Shown here piece by piece: positions 25,527 to 43,463 of a stretch of DNA of 52,407 bases. This DNA comes from a virus. The stretch is taken from UHGV virus genome UHGV-0113213, one strand, 5' to 3'. Numbering within the stretch: position 1 is the first letter of the stretch; every line of letters begins with the position of its first letter. Position numbers and translations under genes: made by a program. The notes under the pieces are model-generated. The model did not search any database and was not told the origin of the DNA. It saw nothing but the letters and a program-made list of their open reading frames with translations.

Positions 25527-26015
25527 TTATTCTTTACGCAAGCACTGCGTTTTGATGTAGTCCTGTAGGCCAGTGATCTGTGCGTCTTTTATTTTTAGTT
25601 GTTCTCTGAGGGATAGATAAGCCGATTTAGCGTCGGCAGTAGGTTCGCAGGTGGCTCCATCAATGCGGCTGGAGGTTCCGGTATTACTGTCTGTTCGCAT
25701 TGGCACGGCGTTGACGCGCAACCGGATAGTACCGTTATCAATGCCAGTGCGCAGATCGGCAATGTCAGATCTGATAGCTTTAATCTCATCGTGATACCTC
25801 TTATCAAGTTTTGACAGTTCGGCGTTTCGCTCCTTCATCTGCTGAATAGTGTTACTTGCTGTCTTCAGTGCGCCTTTCGTCACCGTGACTTCTTCCTGTA
25901 ACCTTGTCGCCTCACCCTGGTAATAACACGTTACGGCGGTTAGTCCGGCAATAATGCAAACAACAGCGGCGATAATTAACGCCTTCACCTTGTCCACGTT
26001 TCCCCCCATTCGCAA
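25527..26015 (-). CDS. Rz: Rz-like i-spanin
   Basis: N-terminal TM helix, coiled-coil periplasmic domain, C-terminal Cys; contains embedded Rz1 in +1 frame; overlaps endolysin end. Confidence 0.8.
25595..25789 (-). CDS. Rz1: Rz1-like o-spanin lipoprotein embedded within Rz
   Basis: [24 protein letters not shown] lipobox followed by Pro-rich short mature peptide; embedded in Rz reading frame +1. Confidence 0.8.
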   Translation of the reverse strand: MRLKLSDLTLPICALALITVLSGCASTPCQCEQTVIPEPPAALMEPPANLLPTLNRLIYPSENN

Positions 26016-26476
26016 ACGGCATATTCAACATCTCGGCGGTTTACCAGGCCTTGCCACTTCTTACCACCAGCGTATACCCAGCGTTTAAGCTGTGCGCACG
26101 CCTCTGATTTCTTACCGTCATTGAGTAGCTTTAATAAGGTTGATGTTTTGAAGTTGGTTGCGCCTACGTTATAGGCGAATGAATAAAGCGCAGCGCGGGT
26201 AAAATCTGATATTTCGACTTTGATATATGGGTTAATCGCTTTTGCGGTTTTGTGGAGATCTTTGTTTAACAAAGTATCGCATTCTGATTGCGTGTAAGTC
26301 TTACCAAGCATGATGTCTTTTCCGGTGTGACCATAGCAAACAGTCCATACACCGATAACATCACGATAAGGATCGTACTCCACGCCCTCTAATGGTTTAA
26401 CCATCACAGCCGCAATAGCGATCGCCCCACCAGCCGCCGCAGCAATAATTTTATTCTTCAGCGATTGGCTAATCAT
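25985..26476 (-). CDS. SAR endolysin (T4-type lysozyme fold, GH24-like)
   Basis: N-terminal signal-arrest-release segment [17 protein letters not shown] then E...D...T catalytic pattern ([23 protein letters not shown]); start at ATG 26474-26476 one nt after holin stop. Confidence 0.85.
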
Positions 26477-26477
26477 G

Positions 26478-26678
26478 TTACTTATTCCCCATTCGCGCGT
26501 CGTGTTCCTCTTGCGCTCGCTTGTTCTCCTGTGATTTGAAGTAATAGTTAACGGCAAATGTGCCTATGGTTGATAAGATACCCACAAAGACAGCAATATC
26601 ATTAATGGTTATCGCGCCGAAAAAAGCAGTTACGGCCCCGGTCACATACGCGCACGCCTCCCGTATTCTGTCGAACAT
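26478..26678 (-). CDS. Holin (pinholin-like, class II)
   Basis: 66 aa, two hydrophobic helices, charged C-terminus; GGAGG RBS; directly upstream of SAR endolysin. Confidence 0.7.
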
Positions 26679-26689
26679 AGATTTTCCTC

Positions 26690-26722
26690 CAACAAAGCAA
26701 AAACCCGGCTCGTGGCCGGGTA
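26690..26722 (-). terminator. Rho-independent terminator immediately upstream of holin (tR-prime-like)
   Basis: Stem CCCGGC/GCCGGG followed by long U-run on minus strand, ~15 nt before holin RBS. Confidence 0.65.
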
Positions 26723-26783
26723 ATTACAATTTCGCATTGTTAGGAAATATTTTAATCTATTTGTTTTTTATGCGCGATTATGG

Positions 26784-26966
26784 CTACAAATCACTAACTT
26801 TCACCAAATCGCCATTATCAAGCCAGATTTTAATTGTTTCTCGCGTCGTCTTGATGATTGGCGCTACCCACTCACCATCGCTAACGCAAACGCGAATATC
26901 ACCACCCTCTATGCGATAAAACATCTTGTCGATTAGTGTTACGGCGTATATACCATCTTCAATCAT
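26784..26966 (-). CDS. Small protein (60 aa); possible distant member of small paralog family
   Basis: ORF coupled to neighbour; GIYAVTL and SDGEW motifs. Confidence 0.4.
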   Translation of the reverse strand: MIEDGIYAVTLIDKMFYRIEGGDIRVCVSDGEWVAPIIKTTRETIKIWLDNGDLVKVSDL

Positions 26967-27157
26967 TTCTTGCGCTCCTTAATAACCCTTTTGATCTGCG
27001 CGCGCGCGGCATCTACGAGAGCAATAAACACCGCTACAGGCCAGAAAGGAATCTCAAGACCACCACGATCGAGATCATTAGATTTGATAAAACAAGACAT
27101 CAGGATAGCGCCAGCAATATAAAGGAGAAACACAGCAATGATAAGACATTCAATCAT
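26963..27157 (-). CDS. Small membrane protein (64 aa, two hydrophobic segments, basic C-terminus)
   Basis: MIECLIIAVFLLYIAGAILMSCFI...; start overlaps upstream gene by 8 nt. Confidence 0.45.
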   Translation of the reverse strand: MIECLIIAVFLLYIAGAILMSCFIKSNDLDRGGLEIPFWPVAVFIALVDAARAQIKRVIKERKK

Positions 27158-27290
27158 CCTCTTTCTCCCCGCCTAAATATTGATATATTTCTTCAGCATT
27201 TTCCCCGCGCTCAAAACAATAATGTTCAAACATGCGCCAATTTTCACTAAGAAACATAACAATAAAATTGTTAACGTATTCGTCATCCAT
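27150..27290 (-). CDS. Small acidic protein (46 aa), not in ORF track
   Basis: ATG 2 nt after upstream stop; MDDEYVNNFIVMFLSENWRMFEHYCFERGENAEEIYQYLGGEKEDD. Confidence 0.4.
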   Translation of the reverse strand: MDDEYVNNFIVMFLSENWRMFEHYCFERGENAEEIYQYLGGEKEDD

Positions 27291-27292
27291 AG

Positions 27293-27604
27293 TTAATCAT
27301 CCTCTTCATCATCTTCTTGTTCAGCCAGGAAATCATCTACGGCACGGTAAGTAACTGGAGGGATATATTCGAAGTCATCCGTATCAAGATCGAGCGTCCG
27401 GCTGTCGCCGTCGTCGTCCAGCGTATTCATCCCTAATTCACCGAAAGGGCCGTACCCAATGTGGCCCAGGTATTCGCAACCAATCGTAAACCCAGGGTAT
27501 TCGCCTTTACACCGGATTTTGTAAGGTTTATTTGATGCGCTCAATTTCCGACCCTCCACTTTCTGCTTTAGTGATTTTGTATTCTGCCGCCAGTTCAGCG
27601 CCAA
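27293..27604 (-). CDS. Hypothetical protein, acidic C-terminus; start uncertain (possibly TTG/GTG near 27541)
   Basis: ORF from track; overlaps upstream gene; GGAGGG RBS located internally. Confidence 0.35.
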   Translation of the reverse strand: MALNWRQNTKSLKQKVEGRKLSASNKPYKIRCKGEYPGFTIGCEYLGHIGYGPFGELGMNTLDDDGDSRTLDLDTDDFEYIPPVTYRAVDDFLAEQEDDEEDD

Positions 27605-27851
27605 GCAATTCCACTTCCATATTAGCGATACCCTGGAACATCAGATAGGCAAAAACTAGGCTTTTAATTCTATCCGGGTCTTCAAGATGGTCTGCATTAA
27701 AAGGCGGTTCCGATACGTGGAAGCATTTAACATGCGCATCGTCTTCAGTGGCTACACAGAAACATGCGCCAGGTTGCCCGGCGAATTCCCCCAATCTTTC
27801 TTCGTTCGGTAAAGTACCACGGAAAACTTTAACGCTGATAAATTTAGTCAT
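27528..27851 (-). CDS. Hypothetical protein (107 aa)
   Basis: ORF in co-oriented operon. Confidence 0.45.
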   Translation of the reverse strand: MTKFISVKVFRGTLPNEERLGEFAGQPGACFCVATEDDAHVKCFHVSEPPFNADHLEDPDRIKSLVFAYLMFQGIANMEVELLGAELAAEYKITKAESGGSEIERIK

Positions 27852-27854
27852 TGT

Positions 27855-28109
27855 TTATTCTCCTTCGTAAAGAGTTGCCACCAGTTCGGCATCTGTTAGC
27901 GTGTTATAATCTGTATAAAACCCGCAACGCATAAGTGAAGAAAGGCCAGCCACTTTGCACCACATAGGGGTCGATTCGCTCAAATATTCATTCTCCCTTT
28001 TTTCGCTGTATTCCAGTTCATAAAACCGACTATTGTTAACAACCTCAATTACACGGCTGTATGTGCCATCAAGCCTACTAACTCCGCGCCATAGTCTGAT
28101 CACAACCAT
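27855..28109 (-). CDS. Hypothetical protein (start moved to second ATG with GGAG RBS)
   Basis: ORF from track 27855-28136. Confidence 0.4.
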   Translation of the reverse strand: MVVIRLWRGVSRLDGTYSRVIEVVNNSRFYELEYSEKRENEYLSESTPMWCKVAGLSSLMRCGFYTDYNTLTDAELVATLYEGE

Positions 28110-28148
28110 AATTTCTACTCCGTTTGATGGGGCCATTCTGCCCCGTGT

Positions 28149-28289
28149 TTATTCTTCTTCTCCTCCTCTAAATCCTAAGCACTCCGCGTATTCGTCAATG
28201 CTTAATGCTTCTTCACCTGGTGCCAATACTTCAAAGTAGCGGGCGTATAGTTCGAAAACCCAGGCCGGATATTTAGCGTTAGCGTTCAT
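28149..28289 (-). CDS. Small acidic protein (46 aa), not in ORF track
   Basis: ATG with AAGGGGG RBS right after upstream stop; MNANAKYPAWVFELYARYFEVLAPGEEALSIDEYAECLGFRGGEEE. Confidence 0.4.
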   Translation of the reverse strand: MNANAKYPAWVFELYARYFEVLAPGEEALSIDEYAECLGFRGGEEE

Positions 28290-28298
28290 GGTTCCCCC

Positions 28299-28577
28299 TT
28301 ATGCCATGCGTGCAAATTCAAGTGATTTGCATTCGTAGTCTTCCTCTGCCTGTTCGATGACTGCCATCATCATTTCGTTTGCGTTGTTGAATGCGTTGCT
28401 TTGTGCGAACTTGTCGGCTCCACCTTCTTCTTCGAACTCCGCGTTGTTTGCTGCAATGTAGTGATATTCGATGTTGTTCAGGTAAGGGCTTGCAGCGTGT
28501 GCTGGGTCTTCTTTCTCCACCATCTCCCAAAATGCGTTTAAGCGAGATTCGACTTCTTTGTTAATCCAGCGTTTCAT
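28299..28577 (-). CDS. Hypothetical protein (92 aa)
   Basis: First gene downstream of the 28613-28674 promoter; GGAGGG RBS. Confidence 0.5.
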   Translation of the reverse strand: MKRWINKEVESRLNAFWEMVEKEDPAHAASPYLNNIEYHYIAANNAEFEEEGGADKFAQSNAFNNANEMMMAVIEQAEEDYECKSLEFARMA

Positions 28578-28612
28578 TTTTCTACCCTCCGCATCGTTCT
28601 CTCTTCAGCTTC

Positions 28613-28674
28613 TTTATAACAAAATGGCACTGCCGAAACAATGCCATTTCGTAAACCTTGTGATACAGATCACA
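28613..28674 (-). promoter_or_regulatory. Promoter with near-consensus CRP-like palindrome TGTGATCTGTATCACA (28659-28674), TTTACGAAATGGCA element, -35 TTGTTT (28636-28641), 17 bp, -10 TATAAA (28613-28618)
   Basis: Read on minus strand; CRP-like centre ~61 bp upstream of predicted start. Confidence 0.5.
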
Positions 28675-28675
28675 T

Positions 28676-28903
28676 TTACGTTTCTTCCGTAAAAGTAACC
28701 TTCATCGCCCCATCCGAACTACGGACAACATAACGACCAATACCGCCTAGCGGCCCTGCATACCATAAGTGACCGTAAGTGTCAGTCACGACGATAAACG
28801 GAAATTTAGGAGACAATCCCATCGGTTTTTCAGCCGTGTACTGTGCTCCTTCCTCAAAACAACCTAATCCCGATTCGTTACACGTTAAAATCATTTTATG
28901 CAC
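28676..28903 (-). CDS. Small protein paralog A (75 aa)
   Basis: Shares C-x2-S-x4-F-x2-G...Y-x-V and D-x-G-x-x-W-x-Y motifs with neighbours. Confidence 0.5.
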   Translation of the reverse strand: MHKMILTCNESGLGCFEEGAQYTAEKPMGLSPKFPFIVVTDTYGHLWYAGPLGGIGRYVVRSSDGAMKVTFTEET

Positions 28904-29135
28904 CTACATACGAAAACGCAGCAAAAGCACCACCACAAGCCCGCGCATAAACAAGCGCAGTTCCACATCCCATCTTATAAAATCGCCATAACTGGCCCTG
29001 GTCGTCAGTAATGGCGTGAATATATTCCTGATCCTTTGCGTCAAACAATGCCGCTCCGACTTCGTAGATCTTGCCATTCTTAAAAAACGCGCTGCATCGT
29101 GAGTATGTGCACTGGTATCTCTGATTCTGTCTCAT
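28896..29135 (-). CDS. Small protein paralog B (79 aa)
   Basis: Motifs CSAFFKNGKIYEV and TDDQGQLWRFY. Confidence 0.5.
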   Translation of the reverse strand: MRQNQRYQCTYSRCSAFFKNGKIYEVGAALFDAKDQEYIHAITDDQGQLWRFYKMGCGTALVYARACGGAFAAFSYVGA

Positions 29136-29144
29136 AACACTACC

Positions 29145-29360
29145 TCACCACTTAACAAAACGCGCGATCGGTTCCGTACTGAACTGGCTGGCAACGTGTC
29201 CACGCGCGTAACAATCCCAATAGCGCCACGCGTCTCCGTGGTCGTCTTTAATGTATTGGGTGTTAAGTTCATCACCAGTCAGGTGAGCTACGGTATATAT
29301 TCCGCCAACCTCAAAGCATGATGATTTTGATTCAGTGCATCTAACATACATGATATTCAT
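29145..29360 (-). CDS. Small protein paralog C (71 aa)
   Basis: Motifs CFEVGGIYTV and KDDHGDAWRYW. Confidence 0.5.
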   Translation of the reverse strand: MNIMYVRCTESKSSCFEVGGIYTVAHLTGDELNTQYIKDDHGDAWRYWDCYARGHVASQFSTEPIARFVKW

Positions 29361-29581
29361 TCCTTATTTGCATTTATAAATAGCGCAACTGGCACACCAT
29401 TACCGCCAACGCCATCAACGAATCCGCTACCATTGAGATCGTTATAAAAAAACCACGGATCGCCATCTTCATCATAAATGTACTGAATATCGTTAGTTCT
29501 GCTTATTAGCGTTTCTATGTCGTAAATCTCATCAACCACAAAAAGATTAGGGAAACGAGACTTTATACATTTTACAAACAT
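29357..29581 (-). CDS. Small protein paralog D (74 aa)
   Basis: Motifs FVVDEIYDI and YDEDGDPWFFY. Confidence 0.5.
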   Translation of the reverse strand: MFVKCIKSRFPNLFVVDEIYDIETLISRTNDIQYIYDEDGDPWFFYNDLNGSGFVDGVGGNGVPVALFINANKE

Positions 29582-29832
29582 CAGAAAACCCCTTTATAAT
29601 CGACCGTGTATTTTACCACCAATTTCCACTCGCTATAGTTTTCCATGTCGCGCGGCTGCCAGCCTTTCATGCCTACAGCACTACGCGCAGCGTGGCGGCG
29701 ATAATCGTCATTAAGATCGGCAATGCACCACGGTTGAAGGAAGAACATATAATTCGCTTCGTTAACCAGAATAGCCATCATCCGTCCAGTGGCCTTATCT
29801 TTCGCCCTGAAATAACTTACCTTGATTTTCAT
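29581..29832 (-). CDS. Hypothetical protein (83 aa)
   Basis: ORF with ATGA-type coupling. Confidence 0.45.
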   Translation of the reverse strand: MKIKVSYFRAKDKATGRMMAILVNEANYMFFLQPWCIADLNDDYRRHAARSAVGMKGWQPRDMENYSEWKLVVKYTVDYKGVF

Positions 29833-30044
29833 TTTAATACCTCGTCGATCAGCATTTCTTCTTCCAGGTTAGCCGGACGTTTACGGAATATCCCGGCAAA
29901 AACCAGGTCATCAAGTAGGTCTTTGCGTTTAAATAGCCACTCTTTCATTATTACCCCGTCATCGCTGCGATATACGACGCCGTTTTTCAAAAAATAAAAA
30001 GTGCTGGTATTTGTTTGAAGGTATAAATCTTCGTAAACGTCCAT
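29829..30044 (-). CDS. Hypothetical protein (71 aa), possible divergent paralog (NGVVYRSDDG)
   Basis: ORF in operon. Confidence 0.4.
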   Translation of the reverse strand: MDVYEDLYLQTNTSTFYFLKNGVVYRSDDGVIMKEWLFKRKDLLDDLVFAGIFRKRPANLEEEMLIDEVLK

Positions 30045-30048
30045 GATA

Positions 30049-30276
30049 TTAACCCTCGACTACTTGCAAGCCGCGCCCCTTATCGCCTACGAAGTCGCCC
30101 AGGCTAAACGTATATGACCACGCCGGGTTAATGTAGTAATCATCAGCACCGTGAGCGATAAGGTCTTTACCCAAAATGACGCAGGTCACATCATCAGAAT
30201 GAACAACGTCTACCGTTTCCCCTACCACGCGTTTTAATGATGGGTAGCCGTGATCGTGCAAGAATTTAACTTTCAT
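30049..30276 (-). CDS. Hypothetical protein (75 aa)
   Basis: ORF in operon. Confidence 0.45.
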   Translation of the reverse strand: MKVKFLHDHGYPSLKRVVGETVDVVHSDDVTCVILGKDLIAHGADDYYINPAWSYTFSLGDFVGDKGRGLQVVEG

Positions 30277-30560
30277 ATTTCTTTCCCTTTATAAGTAACA
30301 GCATCAGCGATCAACAATACCGCCAGCAATTCACCGTCATGTAACGGGTCTGGAATAGCAAAAAATATGTCGCTGTTTTTGTCCGGCACTACTACGCGCA
30401 TATTTCCCTGTTTGTCTTCATGCACGAACCACGGCTTTTCGTGTGGCTCAAACATGCCGAAAAGTAATTTAAGATCTATTTCTTCACCCTTCGTGAATAA
30501 CGACACATCAGTTGTAGTGATAACTAACGCTTTCTGATCTGCTGTTTTCTTCGCTCTCAT
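30273..30560 (-). CDS. Hypothetical protein (95 aa)
   Basis: ORF in operon. Confidence 0.45.
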   Translation of the reverse strand: MRAKKTADQKALVITTTDVSLFTKGEEIDLKLLFGMFEPHEKPWFVHEDKQGNMRVVVPDKNSDIFFAIPDPLHDGELLAVLLIADAVTYKGKEI

Positions 30561-30835
30561 TCCTCTGTCTCCCAGCGGTCTATGCTGATTAAAAAGTCCC
30601 GGATAGCGTGTCGCTCGTCGCGCGTCGGTTTACGCTTCCGGTAAATTTTGAAATCGAACCATTCTTTTTCTTGTTCGAAGTCCAGATCGTAAGCAAGCGC
30701 CTCGATATATCCGCAGTCGTGATACTGGTAAGCCACGCCAGCACGAACAAAAAAGCGGGTTTTATCCCGCTTGTGTTCATAGATACACATATTTGCCCCA
30801 CTATGCAGTTGTGTAACTATCAACCAGCTTTTCAT
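30557..30835 (-). CDS. Hypothetical protein (92 aa)
   Basis: ORF in operon. Confidence 0.45.
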   Translation of the reverse strand: MKSWLIVTQLHSGANMCIYEHKRDKTRFFVRAGVAYQYHDCGYIEALAYDLDFEQEKEWFDFKIYRKRKPTRDERHAIRDFLISIDRWETEE

Positions 30836-31031
30836 CCTTCATTCTGGAAAGCTGCATGATATTCATCGTGTAGCCGTTGTCAGAGAAAAGCCACTCCGCA
30901 GCCTTGCGACGAAAAACAATATCATCATGGTTACGTGTCCATGTAGCTATCACAACGCGTTTCCCGTTAGTGGCGAACATAGATAACGCGTTATCAACTA
31001 CGTCGATAGCCTGCCAGATTTTTAGTTCCAT
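30801..31031 (-). CDS. Hypothetical protein (76 aa)
   Basis: ORF in operon. Confidence 0.4.
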   Translation of the reverse strand: MELKIWQAIDVVDNALSMFATNGKRVVIATWTRNHDDIVFRRKAAEWLFSDNGYTMNIMQLSRMKDEKLVDSYTTA

Positions 31032-31387
31032 GATTTATCTCCGTAGATTTTGAATAGTTCACACGCTTCCTGATTTTCAAGTATATTCATATGCAGGTCA
31101 CGCAGGCGGCGCATTGTGCGGAATCGCGGTCTGAACTCCTGGCTACGTTTAATGTATTTGCCGCCAATTGAATAAATATGCCCGTATGCGTACCATCTGT
31201 TGCCTACCCATATATCATATTCTTTTCCTTCGTAATTAAATTTTATAGTTAGCTCGCCTACTTCAACTATTAACCCTTTATCAATGATGTCATTAAGCAT
31301 TTCGTCCCATTCTTTGAGGAATGGTTGCTGATAAAAACCAAAAAGCGTATTTGCAGCATGGCAAAGATAATCAATGATTATTTGCAT
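31022..31387 (-). CDS. Hypothetical protein (121 aa)
   Basis: ORF in operon. Confidence 0.45.
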   Translation of the reverse strand: MQIIIDYLCHAANTLFGFYQQPFLKEWDEMLNDIIDKGLIVEVGELTIKFNYEGKEYDIWVGNRWYAYGHIYSIGGKYIKRSQEFRPRFRTMRRLRDLHMNILENQEACELFKIYGDKSWN

Positions 31388-31391
31388 ATTA

Positions 31392-31628
31392 TCACCACAT
31401 CATGTAATAAACGTTCTCGTCAGCTAATGCGTCCGCTACATCCTGCGTCATGTGCCTGACTTCAAGGAAAAAATCCTCATCATGCCATTCACTAACAAGC
31501 ATACGCGCCCATTTACGGCGGCGGCGCTTATTGTGTCGTAGATCATCAAAAGTCATTAATGCTTTGTCATATGCCCTTACAAGGCGTTTACGGTTACTTT
31601 TCATTGCTCGACCCACCTTAACATCCAA
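31392..31628 (-). CDS. Hypothetical basic protein (78 aa)
   Basis: ORF in operon. Confidence 0.4.
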   Translation of the reverse strand: MDVKVGRAMKSNRKRLVRAYDKALMTFDDLRHNKRRRRKWARMLVSEWHDEDFFLEVRHMTQDVADALADENVYYMMW

Positions 31629-31909
31629 TTCACATCACATTTAATTGCGAATACTCTCACCGGATCAGTGCCGAATAATGGATGTGTGATAGTTTTCACT
31701 TCGTACCCAAAATAAGGAAGGTTAATAATCCTGTGTTTTTCGTGGTTGGCAGGGTATCCCCATTTAATAATCAGGCGCTCATATTCCCGCCCTTCCAGAC
31801 GTTTACGCCAATAGTCATTATAAAGCCGGTATTCCTCCACCTTCTTTCCCGCCCGGATAGCGTGGAAATATTCCCCTTTCAGATTCAAATGCAGGTCTTT
31901 ACTTGCCAT
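31601..31909 (-). CDS. ASCH-domain-like protein (start uncertain)
   Basis: Motif EYFHAIRAGKKVEEYR resembles ASCH/PUA-like G-K-K-x-x-E-x-R signature. Confidence 0.45.
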   Translation of the reverse strand: MASKDLHLNLKGEYFHAIRAGKKVEEYRLYNDYWRKRLEGREYERLIIKWGYPANHEKHRIINLPYFGYEVKTITHPLFGTDPVRVFAIKCDVNWMLRWVEQ

Positions 31910-32081
31910 CGCTATGATCCTGTAAACAGTCGTTATAGCCTTCAATATATCCGGTTAATCCGGTATTACTCACTGACCATTCAGCCGAACGGCGTTTGAT
32001 GGCCTTGTCCATCGTCATTTCATCGCCTGGTCCGCCTGGCTCAATGTATTTTCTTAAATCCCTTACTATCCACGCCATCAA
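31899..32081 (-). CDS. Hypothetical protein (60 aa)
   Basis: ORF in operon. Confidence 0.35.
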   Translation of the reverse strand: MMAWIVRDLRKYIEPGGPGDEMTMDKAIKRRSAEWSVSNTGLTGYIEGYNDCLQDHSDGK

Positions 32082-32156
32082 TGATGCGTATCACTGCACA
32101 CACGCGCCGTTAATGTCAGGTCATTGACCAGCTTTGCAAATAGATGTTCTTTTAAT

Positions 32157-32504
32157 TTAGGCTTCATTGTCGTCACCTTCGAAATACTGCTCAATCGCAC
32201 GTTTGACGTTCATTTCTCGCTGATAATTGTTACCGCTATAGATTGCGGCTGCCGATACGTGATCGATAATTTGCTGTAATAAATAAGGATGAATTTTTAT
32301 TTTTTCATCAAGGACAATGCGAGATGGCTTAGGTGCTGTAGCAATATCATCAACGATTTCTATCTCACCACCTCCGCCGCAGCGAGGACAAACGAATTTA
32401 TCACCTTGATACAGCATGATGCCGCAACCTTTTTCGGTTTTTACGACCATGCCATCGTCGTCGCAGTTTTCGCAATACAGCCACCGAATATTAATTATTT
32501 TCAT
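32157..32504 (-). CDS. Zinc-ribbon protein (CENCDDDG...CPRCGGGG); start uncertain
   Basis: Two CxxC pairs. Confidence 0.4.
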   Translation of the reverse strand: MKIINIRWLYCENCDDDGMVVKTEKGCGIMLYQGDKFVCPRCGGGGEIEIVDDIATAPKPSRIVLDEKIKIHPYLLQQIIDHVSAAAIYSGNNYQREMNVKRAIEQYFEGDDNEA

Positions 32505-32694
32505 TGTCGTTACTCCGTCCGTAAATATGGACAGGCTCAACTGGTACTGCTGGCAATTCGCCATCATTTAACTCGCTCGCCATGCCTAATATTAAACGCG
32601 CTTCAGCACCAGTGACTTTCTTGCACCATGCGTCGCCTGTTTTATCTTCAAATAAGATAACGGCAAACTGATCGTTTATTTCCAGCTTATCCAT
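32491..32694 (-). CDS. Hypothetical acidic protein (67 aa)
   Basis: ATGA overlap with Q stop. Confidence 0.4.
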   Translation of the reverse strand: MDKLEINDQFAVILFEDKTGDAWCKKVTGAEARLILGMASELNDGELPAVPVEPVHIYGRSNDNENN

Positions 32695-33422
32695 TATTCA
32701 CCCCGTGTCACTCGTTTGATTTCGCTTTCCGCGCGAGATTCTTCTTTGAATAGCTCCGCTATGGCGTCTTCATAGAAAACCCTGTATTTCTTCCACCATG
32801 TTGATCTGCTTACCGGGAAAACAAGCTGGTTAACAGCCTGCCGGACGAGATCTACAGGGAAACGCGAGTACCCGCGCCCGCCGCAGTGCTGGCACGTTTT
32901 GAATACTGGCATTTCCGCCGCTTCGCTGGCTGCTTTATCCGGTACTTCGCCACGCCCCTTGCACCTCTGGCAATGGTTTTTAACGTAGCCTTTGCCGTTG
33001 CACCGCGAGCAAACTGTCGATGTGTATTCACAATATGGATTCGGTAAAAGCCCGTTACCTCCGCACTTAGGGCAAACCTTTTCGGTAGCCGCACTTTGGC
33101 AGTAATCCCGAAACGCGAAAACGGCAACAAGAATAATAAGATCATTGCGTTGTTCTTCATTTAATTCCATCACGTATTCGTAATCTTTCGCCATAACCCT
33201 TAAACGCTCTGTAAGCAAAATTACGGCCCTGTGTTTTTCAGCTTGCGATAGCTCCATTTTCCCTAAAAAAGCACTATAGCCAAGCTCTACGCGCGATTGC
33301 GCCATACCAGCGGCGGTAAGCGCATCCGTCGTATTAAGTGCATCCGGGGATGTTCCCCGGCTTTCGTCTGATAATCGCGGTGATTTGGGAAAGTGGAATT
33401 TCAGAATGGATTCTAAATTCAT
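32694..33422 (-). CDS. Q: Late-gene antiterminator Q-like protein (242 aa)
   Basis: N-terminus MNLESILKFHFPKSPRLSD...AAGMAQS...AFLGK and multiple CxxC zinc motifs match my recollection of the Q antitermination family; located after NinG-RusA. Confidence 0.65.
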   Translation of the reverse strand: MNLESILKFHFPKSPRLSDESRGTSPDALNTTDALTAAGMAQSRVELGYSAFLGKMELSQAEKHRAVILLTERLRVMAKDYEYVMELNEEQRNDLIILVAVFAFRDYCQSAATEKVCPKCGGNGLLPNPYCEYTSTVCSRCNGKGYVKNHCQRCKGRGEVPDKAASEAAEMPVFKTCQHCGGRGYSRFPVDLVRQAVNQLVFPVSRSTWWKKYRVFYEDAIAELFKEESRAESEIKRVTRGE

Positions 33423-33604
33423 TATTTACCCCCATAGCGAGCAATAAGGCGTTTGCGATCAGAAATGGTTTGCACCAGTTTTCTTTCAAGCTCTTTCAGC
33501 GCAAGTAATTCCTGCATGTGAAAAGCCTGGATTCGTCTGACTGTCGCTAAATCATGCTCGTCACGTTGAACATCTATTTGCAGATCTTTAATTTCGTTTT
33601 TCAT
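33422..33604 (-). CDS. Hypothetical protein (60 aa)
   Basis: ORF between RusA and Q. Confidence 0.4.
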   Translation of the reverse strand: MKNEIKDLQIDVQRDEHDLATVRRIQAFHMQELLALKELERKLVQTISDRKRLIARYGGK

Positions 33605-34825: not shown

Positions 34826-34864
34826 TTCTACGCATTTCAGCGCTGCCGGATTTTTAAAGAGCAT
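34826..34864 (-). promoter_or_regulatory. Internal nut-like site: boxA ATGCTCTTTAAAAATCCGG plus hairpin CGCUGAAAUGCG
   Basis: 18-mer identical to the rightward-leader boxA at 43321-43339; same 3-nt spacing to a short GAA-containing hairpin. Confidence 0.45.
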
Positions 34865-34960
34865 TTTGTTTGCTTGAAGTATACAAAATGGATACCCCCA
34901 AACAAGGCAAAAAGCGCCATTATGTGATCCGCATCACGCAATGATGCCATTTTGTAAACT

Positions 34961-38246: not shown

Positions 38247-38344
38247 CTTGTTTCCTCCGTGCCGTAAACCTCTTAATTTCAGTTTACAAAACGGATATGC
38301 GATCGCAATACAAAATGTATATTTATGTGATCGCAATCACGCTG

Positions 38345-39753: not shown

Positions 39754-39872
39754 CACATCGCCCCTTTACAAATAAAGCTAATCACCGCAGCAAGTGCGCC
39801 GCAAAACACAATCGTAAACAGGAAACAAATAACGCAAAAAGCGACCCTTACAATATTCTTGCAAACCTTCAT
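39753..39872 (-). CDS. Mini-gene, 39-aa Cys-rich membrane peptide MKVCKNIVRVAFCVICFLFTIVFCGALAAVISFICKGAM
   Basis: ATG 3 nt after upstream mini-gene stop. Confidence 0.4.
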   Translation of the reverse strand: MKVCKNIVRVAFCVICFLFTIVFCGALAAVISFICKGAM

Positions 39873-39875
39873 AAC

Positions 39876-39995
39876 TCACCCCAACAATGCAACAATTAAT
39901 TCAGCAATAAAAACGGCGACATAAAAAGAAGCTGTGATATAAATCACCCCAATAACGAAGGCGGCGGCTAATGCCGCAATTTTTACCATGCTCAT
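39876..39995 (-). CDS. Mini-gene, 39-aa membrane peptide MSMVKIAALAAAFVIGVIYITASFYVAVFIAELIVALLG
   Basis: ATGA overlap with upstream gene stop. Confidence 0.4.
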   Translation of the reverse strand: MSMVKIAALAAAFVIGVIYITASFYVAVFIAELIVALLG

Positions 39996-43285: not shown

Positions 43286-43320
43286 AAAGATAACGGAAGG
43301 CACAAAAAGGCACTTACCTT

Positions 43321-43356
43321 ATGCTCTTTAAAAATCCGGTGTCGCTGCGAAGCGAA
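43321..43356 (+). promoter_or_regulatory. nutR-like site: boxA ATGCTCTTTAAAAATCCGG plus short hairpin CGCUGCGAAGCG
   Basis: boxA close to rrn-type TGCTCTTTAACAA; in leader of rightward operon. Confidence 0.45.
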
Positions 43357-43463
43357 AAACAAATATCACGCAACGGCGGGATCTGTTGAGCGGTCAGTCA
43401 CTGCTATCTAATGCTAATGGGATGCCCGCCCGCGCGTTCACTCTAACCATAGGAGAAAATGCG

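Follow-up and report, generated by a model that had tools for sequence, protein, structure and literature searches.

The DNA analysed here, referred to as the window, was the whole 52,407-nt stretch of the viral genome UHGV-0113213. The region under study extended from the gene of a Q antiterminator to the holin gene, which were separated by a long run of small open reading frames (ORFs). Minus-strand genes dominated the window from ~1 kb to 43 kb in the order early-right genes, NinG, RusA, Q, small ORFs, lysis genes, terminase, head and tail, and the Q-to-holin region was located wholly on the minus strand. The window was found to be a member of the mEpimmI (mEp021-like) coliphages, a group (mEp021, mEp010, mEp013, mEp044, mEp515 and mEp554) described in PMC11893012; its gene order was identical to that of the group and its Q protein was 85-97% identical to the Q proteins of the group. 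The region matched seven sequenced phages (MagusPhagus, mEp044, mEp010, mEp554, mEp013, mEp021 and mEp515) at 85-89% identity, and prophage matches to it were found in 35 of 5,426 complete E. coli genomes. The prevalence of mEpimmI phages in human faecal samples has been reported as equal to that of lambdoid phages. The layout of Q, small ORFs and holin was seen in every relative examined, and an intact, conserved Q gene was present in every group member examined.

The Q gene (32694-33422) encoded a protein of 242 aa that matched the Pfam family PF03589 (E=1.7e-31, 108.7 bits against a cut-off of 26.7), which is the lambda-Q family according to PMC9388147, and lambda Q in the PDB entry 7UBM (phmmer, E=3e-37). 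Judging by these matches and by the alignment, the gene product is a member of the lambda-Q family. The N-terminal region, the zinc-ribbon arm and the C-terminal region were conserved in both proteins. Residues 1-60 aligned to lambda Q without gaps, and C151, C154, C177, C180 and G39 were invariant in an alignment with the Q proteins of lambda, phi80, HK225 and Salmonella phage SE1; the roles of the arm cysteines and of the N-terminal RNA-exit nozzle segment were taken from PMC9388147. The arm was long and carried four CxxCxGxG motifs (DnaJ_CXXCXGXG match of 33.3 bits). The second pair of these motifs is not present in lambda Q, whereas the Q proteins of phi80, HK225, SE1 (gp23) and the IMG/VR loci L074-L135 share both the Q subfamily and the extra zinc motifs with the window.

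Downstream of Q, an accessory island of ~24 small, mostly acidic ORFs was delimited at 26784-32694 by using the ORF list and PHROG searches. The ORFs were 46-136 aa in size, nearly all matched PHROG families of unknown function, and a net negative charge was calculated for 17 of the 24. The original prediction that about 25 small ORFs lie between Q and holin, in an arrangement unlike that of lambda, was borne out, as ~24 tightly packed ORFs occupied ~6 kb. The first of them overlapped the Q stop codon (TAATG), most overlapped or abutted their neighbours, and the only gaps were of 98 bp (28578-28675) and 105 bp (26679-26783). The island was 5.9 kb long in the window and 1.9-6.7 kb across 28 unique relatives (1.9 kb in mEp021). 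Five ORFs of the window were present in all 28 of these relatives and the others in 8 to 27 of them, as scored by tblastn for presence or absence; therefore, the accessory island is a mosaic. The universal ORFs (30801-31031, 30557-30793, 30049-30276, 29829-30044 and 29581-29832) formed a core block at 29581-31031, delimited by tblastn and blastn coverage, in which one flexible ORF (30273-30560) was also located.

The island was followed by the lysis genes. The holin (PHROG 20), the first gene of the late operon, was encoded at 26478-26678 with its ATG at 26678 and a GGAGG ribosome-binding site at 26690-26686. The endolysin gene (25985-26476), matching PHROG 7, and an Rz-like spanin gene came next.

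In the gap before the holin, a conserved block of ~85-90 bp was found, which extended from about -41 to the holin ATG. The alignment was built first on 12 annotated relatives and then on 51 loci representing 31 unique sequences, and the block was near-invariant in all 51 group loci carrying it. The genes upstream of the block varied between loci and the homology started right at the -35 position. We proposed that the block contains the late promoter pR'. Its -35 position (26772-26777) was read from the alignment as TTGTAG or TTGTGG in the majority variant and as TCGCGC, a poor hexamer, in the window. The 17-nt spacer that followed (26755-26771) contained a part conserved in the 31 unique sequences, AAACAAAYRGAT, and ended with AAACAAATAGAT in the window. 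The conserved part is a candidate Q-binding element, as its position matches that of the lambda Q-binding element between -35 and -10 (PMC9388147) and that of the annotated phi80 Q-binding site. The -10 hexamer TAAAAT (26749-26754) was recorded in all 51 loci and scored with a position-weight matrix (PWM), although it had been part of the search pattern by which 39 of the 51 were collected. It was separated by the seven nucleotides ATTTCCT from AACAAT (26736-26741), a candidate sigma-dependent pause element that would occupy +1 to +6 of a transcript with a predicted start near 26741. At the level of sequence, AACAAT, 7 nt after the -10 hexamer, was placed in the same way as AACGAT of lambda and HK225, AACGCT of phi80 and AACAGT of SE1.

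The pause element was followed by GCGAAATTGTAATT, a hairpin ACCCGGC-CACGA-GCCGGGT, TTTTTGCTTTGTT, GGAGG and the holin ATG. The hairpin and the TTTTTGC after it (26697-26721) were recognized as a tR'-like intrinsic terminator by folding and by the annotation of relatives, in agreement with an earlier claim of a strong terminator just before the holin ribosome-binding site. The stem was of 7 bp with six G-C pairs (26721-26703) and was followed by TTTTT; the calculated dG was -13.5 kcal/mol, and the structure lay ~20 nt before the holin. It corresponds to TERM_5 in the GenBank record of mEp021, and in the records of mEp044, mEp010 and mEp013 an ARNold-predicted terminator is likewise marked ahead of the holin. 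A terminator 't5', which may be the same as TERM_5, is called experimentally demonstrated in PMC11893012. The predicted terminated leader RNA was ~43 nt, and the pause site was only ~4 nt before the terminator stem.

To the eye alone, as had been stated originally, neither the late promoter nor the Q-utilisation site was evident; the comparison with relatives placed both in the ~60 nt just upstream of the terminator. Hence, the hairpin is most likely the target terminator of Q (tR') and not simply the end of the accessory operon. Both strands of the 52-kb window were searched for a composite signature made up of TANNNT, 6-7 nt, AACNNT and, no more than 60 nt further on, an intrinsic terminator; a single match was obtained, at 26754, and 60 shuffled sequences gave none. 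With a simple PWM, the majority variant of the promoter scored 10.1-10.7 bits and the window variant 7.0 bits, while known or annotated pR' promoters scored 14.3 (lambda), 11.4 (SE1), 10.2 (phi80) and 7.7 (HK225) bits, a range of 7.7-14.3 bits.

Further, the block was compared with the cassettes of other Q phages. A Q-type cassette has been described as a Q gene directly beside a promoter, a pause site and a terminator, with Q binding between -35 and -10 (PMC9388147). In the lambda record, pR' reads TTGACT, 17 nt, TAAATT, TGACTC and AACGATGGGTTAATT, and the pause of RNA polymerase at +16/+17 is caused by sigma, which rebinds a -10-like element in the first transcribed bases (PMC9191641). The annotated pR' of phi80, with its Q-binding site, was composed of TTGCAT, 17 nt, TAGATT, 7 nt and AACGCT, the terminator being located ~50 nt further on. 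In HK225 the order was TTTACT, 16 nt, TAATTT, 6 nt and AACGATGGGTTAAT, and in SE1 TTGCAA, 17 nt, TATCAT, 6 nt and AACAGT, each followed by a terminator. An additional 62 loci with Q homologues at 36-40% identity, equal to 41 distinct downstream sequences, were inspected by eye, and most of the arrangements were also caught by a simple regular expression. In all 41 sequences, an arrangement of a -35 hexamer, 16-17 nt, a -10 hexamer, 6-7 nt and AACNNT or AATGAT, with a terminator further downstream, started at most ~70 nt from the Q stop codon, and it was likewise adjacent to Q in lambda, phi80, HK225 and SE1.

The block of the window is thus equivalent to these Q-adjacent cassettes in its order of elements. 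As in lambda, a -10 hexamer is followed after 6-7 nt by an AACNAT pause element and by a terminator ahead of the holin, the first late gene. The block also resembled the cassette of the long-arm Q phages, which is likewise compact; in these phages the terminator is located 50-75 nt after the start (at about +50 to +75, compared with ~+190 in lambda) and the sequence is similar (CTAACA.T..GAAAT..GT). The initially transcribed sequences were alike, for example TTCCTAACACTAGAAATCCGT versus TTCCTAACAATGCGAAATTGT. The leader of 194 nt in lambda compares with ~43 nt in the window. The distance to Q was the main difference: Q is ~40 nt from the promoter in lambda and within ~70 nt of the cassette in the 41 long-arm sequences, whereas in the 28 unique mEpimmI regions the cassette was found from 1.9 kb (mEp021) to 6.7 kb away, with the accessory island in between. 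No pR' was found directly downstream of Q in the window, where the Q stop codon overlaps the next ORF and the cassette lies 5.9 kb off.

A pattern derived from the cassette, TAAAAT-N6-TAACAATGCGAAANTGTAA, gave no matches in a set of one representative genome per species (185,579 species) and 39 matches in IMG/VR. Together with the 35 E. coli genomes mentioned above, these counts indicate that the mEpimmI group appears largely confined to E. coli strains.

Based on these comparisons, we consider it likely that the pre-holin cassette (26777-26697) is a compact late control region of the lambda type, that Q, although encoded 5.9 kb away, acts on it, and that the island is part of an early operon. 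From the architecture of the locus we infer that the promoter is active, that polymerase pauses and Q binds there, and that the island is expressed early, as follows. Transcription would start near 26741 from a sigma-70 promoter with TAAAAT as its -10 hexamer, and the first transcribed bases, AACAAT, would act as a -10-like sigma-dependent pause element, while Q would bind the conserved spacer element AAACAAAYRGAT. Without Q, the polymerase would terminate at the hairpin and U-run (26721-26697) after ~43 nt. Polymerase on which Q had been loaded at the pause would instead read through into the holin, endolysin and spanin genes and on into ~25 kb of genes for packaging, head and tail. In this scheme, the mosaic island would have become interposed between the Q gene and the site on which Q acts.

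The accessory genes probably form the distal end of a delayed-early rightward operon and are co-transcribed with Q, i.e., they are early and not late genes. This assignment is drawn from the overlap of the ORFs with one another and of the first of them with Q, from the lack of a conserved promoter among the candidates found, and from a nut site ~1.4 kb upstream of Q. The location of the island ahead of the proposed late promoter points the same way. The nut site, a boxA-like GCTCTTTAA (34854-34862, minus strand), is nutR2-like and stands at the head of the NinG-RusA-Q-accessory block; nutR2 is placed downstream of the methyltransferase gene in PMC11893012. The operon would be read by polymerase modified at nutR2 by the N-like Gp17, which would pass two internal hairpins (30772-30745 and 28652-28619), and the terminator overridden by Q would insulate the holin and the other lysis genes from the early operon upstream. 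A similar region is known in lambda, where the nin genes between P and Q are small, overlapping, mosaic and non-essential, contain internal terminators and are transcribed by N-modified polymerase. The nin genes are located upstream of Q, whereas the window has NinG/RusA-type genes upstream and a second, larger island downstream of Q.

Several observations weigh against this reading. The window, like 12 of the 51 loci, belongs to a minority upstream variant, in which ~12 extra nucleotides displace the majority TTGTAG and leave TCGCGC at -35; the promoter score of 7.0 bits falls slightly below the range of known pR' promoters, and because of the TCGCGC hexamer the strength of the promoter in the window variant is uncertain. 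The extra nucleotides also create a CATAAT hexamer at 26782-26777. Unlike lambda, the window has no -35-like TTGACT beside the pause element, and the pause consensus T-N-Y-G was not matched at +14 to +17 when inspected by eye. The Q alleles (240 and 242 aa) did not co-vary with the two promoter variants, and no covariation support for Q binding was obtained in that comparison. Finally, mass spectrometry of mEp021 virions detected the counterpart of the island ORF 29829-30044, a 'virion structural protein' (gp41) that the authors compared with the translational repressor RegA (PMC11893012). Such a product of the island would fit late expression, though an Ssb protein was detected likewise. In the window this ORF is of 71 aa; its positional equivalent in the annotation of relatives is of 249 bp (82 aa).

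If the promoter behaves like lambda pR', the ~43-nt leader (26697-26741) would be made constitutively from the prophage. The equivalent short RNA of Shiga-toxin phages, StxS, is a regulatory small RNA (PMC7547250). It was also observed that the tail TTTTTGC-TT-TT-G is common to 26689-26706, 34899-34916 and 39826-39843, the first two being terminator tails, which suggests a shared origin or a shared constraint.

A different role for the distal part of the island was considered in connection with the 98-bp gap (28578-28675, minus strand). This junction element contained a CRP-like palindrome, a repeated motif, a hairpin and a weak promoter-like pair. The palindrome TGTGATCTGTATCACA (28674-28659) matched TGTGA-N6-TCACA perfectly, as did no other site in the window (0.01 expected), and was followed by the motif AGGTTTACGAAATGG at 28658-28644. 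The hairpin (28652-28619) had 15 bp and a U-tract with a dG of -19.9 kcal/mol, and the promoter-like pair was TTGTTT (28641-28636), 17 nt and TATAAA (28618-28613). The element was found in 33 of 52 group loci between differing flanking genes, and ARNold terminators are annotated at or beside the homologous gap in mEp044, mEp010 and mEp554. On this basis, the distal island (28577-26784) could be an autonomous moron-like unit expressed in the prophage from a CRP-dependent promoter in the gap, with the pre-holin hairpin serving mainly as the terminator or insulator of the unit.

The perfect CRP core speaks for such a unit, as do its centre ~60.5 bp upstream of the start predicted from TTGTTT-17-TATAAA (class I spacing, estimated by eye), the recurrence of the same motif-plus-hexamer geometry at a strong pR-like promoter (42387-42359) and the hairpins that bound the unit. 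Against it, the left half-site of the palindrome was conserved but the right half was kept in only about half of 26 unique sequences, and the -10 hexamer read TATAAA or TATATA in relatives, so that the key final T was missing, with a score of ~6.5 bits by hand arithmetic on the same matrix. Conservation of both the CRP site and a core promoter was not found among these 26 sequences. The whole element was absent from 19 of the 52 loci, and its most conserved feature was the terminator-like hairpin, which overlaps the supposed CRP promoter. The original prediction of an internal CRP-like promoter at 28613-28674 therefore stood with respect to the palindrome, while the promoter itself was weakly supported. 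We regard an autonomous unit as unlikely, though it can coexist with the late control region and early operon preferred here.

Rather less probable is an organization like that of the Shiga-toxin phages (Q, pR', tR', tRNAs/stx/morons, S), which also have several kilobases of accessory genes between Q and the lysis genes. In those phages the accessory genes follow pR'/tR' and are Q-dependent (PMC6266700, PMC7547250), whereas the genes of the window are upstream of the proposed pR'. The accessory genes would be late if an unrecognised Q-dependent promoter were located at or near the end of Q and Q-modified polymerase read through the hairpins at 30772, 28652 and 26721 into the holin. A motif that mimics the lambda layout (GTGACA, 16 nt, TAAGCT, 7 nt, AACGAT) was indeed found at 32711-32670. 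It was absent in mEp021 and in a second allele of the 67-aa gene next to Q, which together make up at least six of the 14 unique variants, its -10 hexamer drifted by synonymous substitutions, and no terminator was located within 60 nt, so this promoter was rejected as unconserved. The island product detected in mEp021 virions would agree with late expression, and so would the hairpin at 30772-30745, which in mEp021 is ~270 nt downstream of Q, a distance of similar order to the promoter-terminator spacing of lambda. But if the island were late, no role would remain for the pre-holin block of promoter, pause element and terminator, which is perfectly conserved.

It is very improbable that the pre-holin block is the terminator of the early operon alone, with a chance pause match and late genes reached by Gp17 read-through or from another promoter: the -35 of the window is poor and Gp17 antitermination is the only antitermination experimentally shown in the group (PMC11893012), but the composite signature has no second occurrence in 52 kb and none in the 60 shuffles, the block is homologous to the cassette adjacent to Q in 41 of 41 distant relatives, and every member examined has an intact, conserved Q.

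Other candidate elements of the region were assessed and set aside. Pairing of UUUCCU, just upstream of the transcription start, with the holin Shine-Dalgarno sequence, which would silence read-through transcripts, was not supported, as the four haplotype combinations were equally frequent. A boxB-like leader hairpin (ACAAU-GCGAA-AUUGU) was rejected by eye on account of an A/C mismatch that breaks the pairing in the common C variant. A generic promoter scan was uninformative, with 13 sites found versus 22 expected, and the best sigma-70 match of the region, CTGACA-16-TATCAT (30883-30856), had its -10 destroyed in most relatives. An Rfam search gave nothing in the window at gathering thresholds and nothing in 26300-33600 at E up to 1.

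The hairpin within the core block, designated T_a (30745-30772, minus strand), was located in the 5' coding part of the universal ORF 30557-30793. It resembled an intrinsic terminator, AAGCGGG-ATAAAA-CCCGCTT followed by TTTTGTT, with a GC-rich 7-bp stem and a TTTTTT run, and was near-invariant in 52 loci. Both stem variants that were seen (G-C to C-G and C-G to U-G) keep the pairing. T_a coincided with 13 consecutive conserved third-codon positions, and no other run turned up when Q, holin and the five universal ORFs were scanned for conservation of synonymous sites. T_a probably functions as an intrinsic terminator or attenuator selected within the operon.

Among the other island genes, the predicted paralog array was confirmed: four ORFs of 71-79 aa stand in tandem at 28676-29581 (minus strand). 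The four were 21-32% identical with a common C..S..F..Y..I.D..G..W motif, and three matched phrog_31142. The zinc-ribbon and ASCH-like proteins suggested earlier fared less well: ORF 32157-32567 gave a weak DnaJ CxxCxGxG match, and ORF 31601-31945 matched the first 25 model positions of Pfam ASCH (PF04266) below threshold (15.8 bits against a cut-off of 21.2, E=0.024). An ASCH domain-containing label is given in RefSeq to a gene of the corresponding region, possibly the homologue of ORF 31601-31945, in several related prophages.

The repeated motif of the gap was not restricted to it. The 15-nt motif AAGTWTACAAAATGG had 11 matches in the window at no more than two mismatches (2835, 7605, 9198, 9589, 28644, 34877, 34947, 38280, 42389, 43232 and 47213) versus 0.24 expected. 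The copies inspected were mostly intergenic; an inverted pair flanked a segment upstream of the nutR2-like boxA, and one copy, unaccompanied by the palindrome, abutted the -35 of the pR-like promoter at 42387-42359. The motif may be a site for an unidentified regulator or a module-boundary sequence. Four perfect copies of GTGAT-N4-ATCAC, the core of the CRP consensus, were also recorded (28660-28673, 34924-34937, 38327-38340 and 39934-39947), when 1.5 would be expected even with one mismatch. Three of them adjoined the 15-nt motif at early-operon junctions, including the one just upstream of the nutR2-like boxA, and the fourth, inside a membrane-protein ORF, may be due to chance.

Candidate early control sites were noted at the far end of the early region. 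A strong sigma-70 promoter (TTGACT, 17 nt, TATATT; 42387-42359, minus strand) was located after the terminator that follows a repressor-like gene, and a boxA-like GCACTTTAA was found downstream of it at 42316-42308 (minus strand); the two probably represent pR and nutR1. A boxA-like GCTCTTTAA with a short hairpin (43320-43370, plus strand), in the interval that separates the repressor-like gene from the leftward genes, is probably nutL.

The mEpimmI group, its N-like system and the Q family were already known. Gp17 and the nut sites, the repressor, the receptors and the core genome are covered in PMC11893012, where the Q-to-holin layout is not discussed and the term 'late promoter' does not occur in the text. 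Neither the separation of Q from its cassette nor the location of the late promoter was found in the accessible description of the group.

As a tentative picture of the whole, which we consider possible but doubtful, the uncoupling of Q from its site would have made room for fast-evolving acidic early proteins, perhaps acting in host takeover or anti-defence. The junction element with its CRP palindrome, AAGTWTACAAAATGG motif and hairpin would tie their expression to host nutrition or to a phage regulator, and the constitutive ~43-nt leader might be a regulatory small RNA like StxS.

The predicted leader would be among the shortest ones controlled by Q. A probable expression class, early and together with Q, was assigned to ~24 genes of unknown function, and the cassette provides a concrete signature for annotators seeking late promoters away from Q. 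Antitermination by Q is the textbook late switch with an adjacent cassette, to which every distant Q homologue sampled conforms; yet the mEpimmI phages keep all parts of the cassette and put 2-7 kb of mosaic genes between it and Q. For lambda Q, a preference for action in cis has been reported. The mEpimmI phages offer a natural test of whether adjacency matters for the action of Q.

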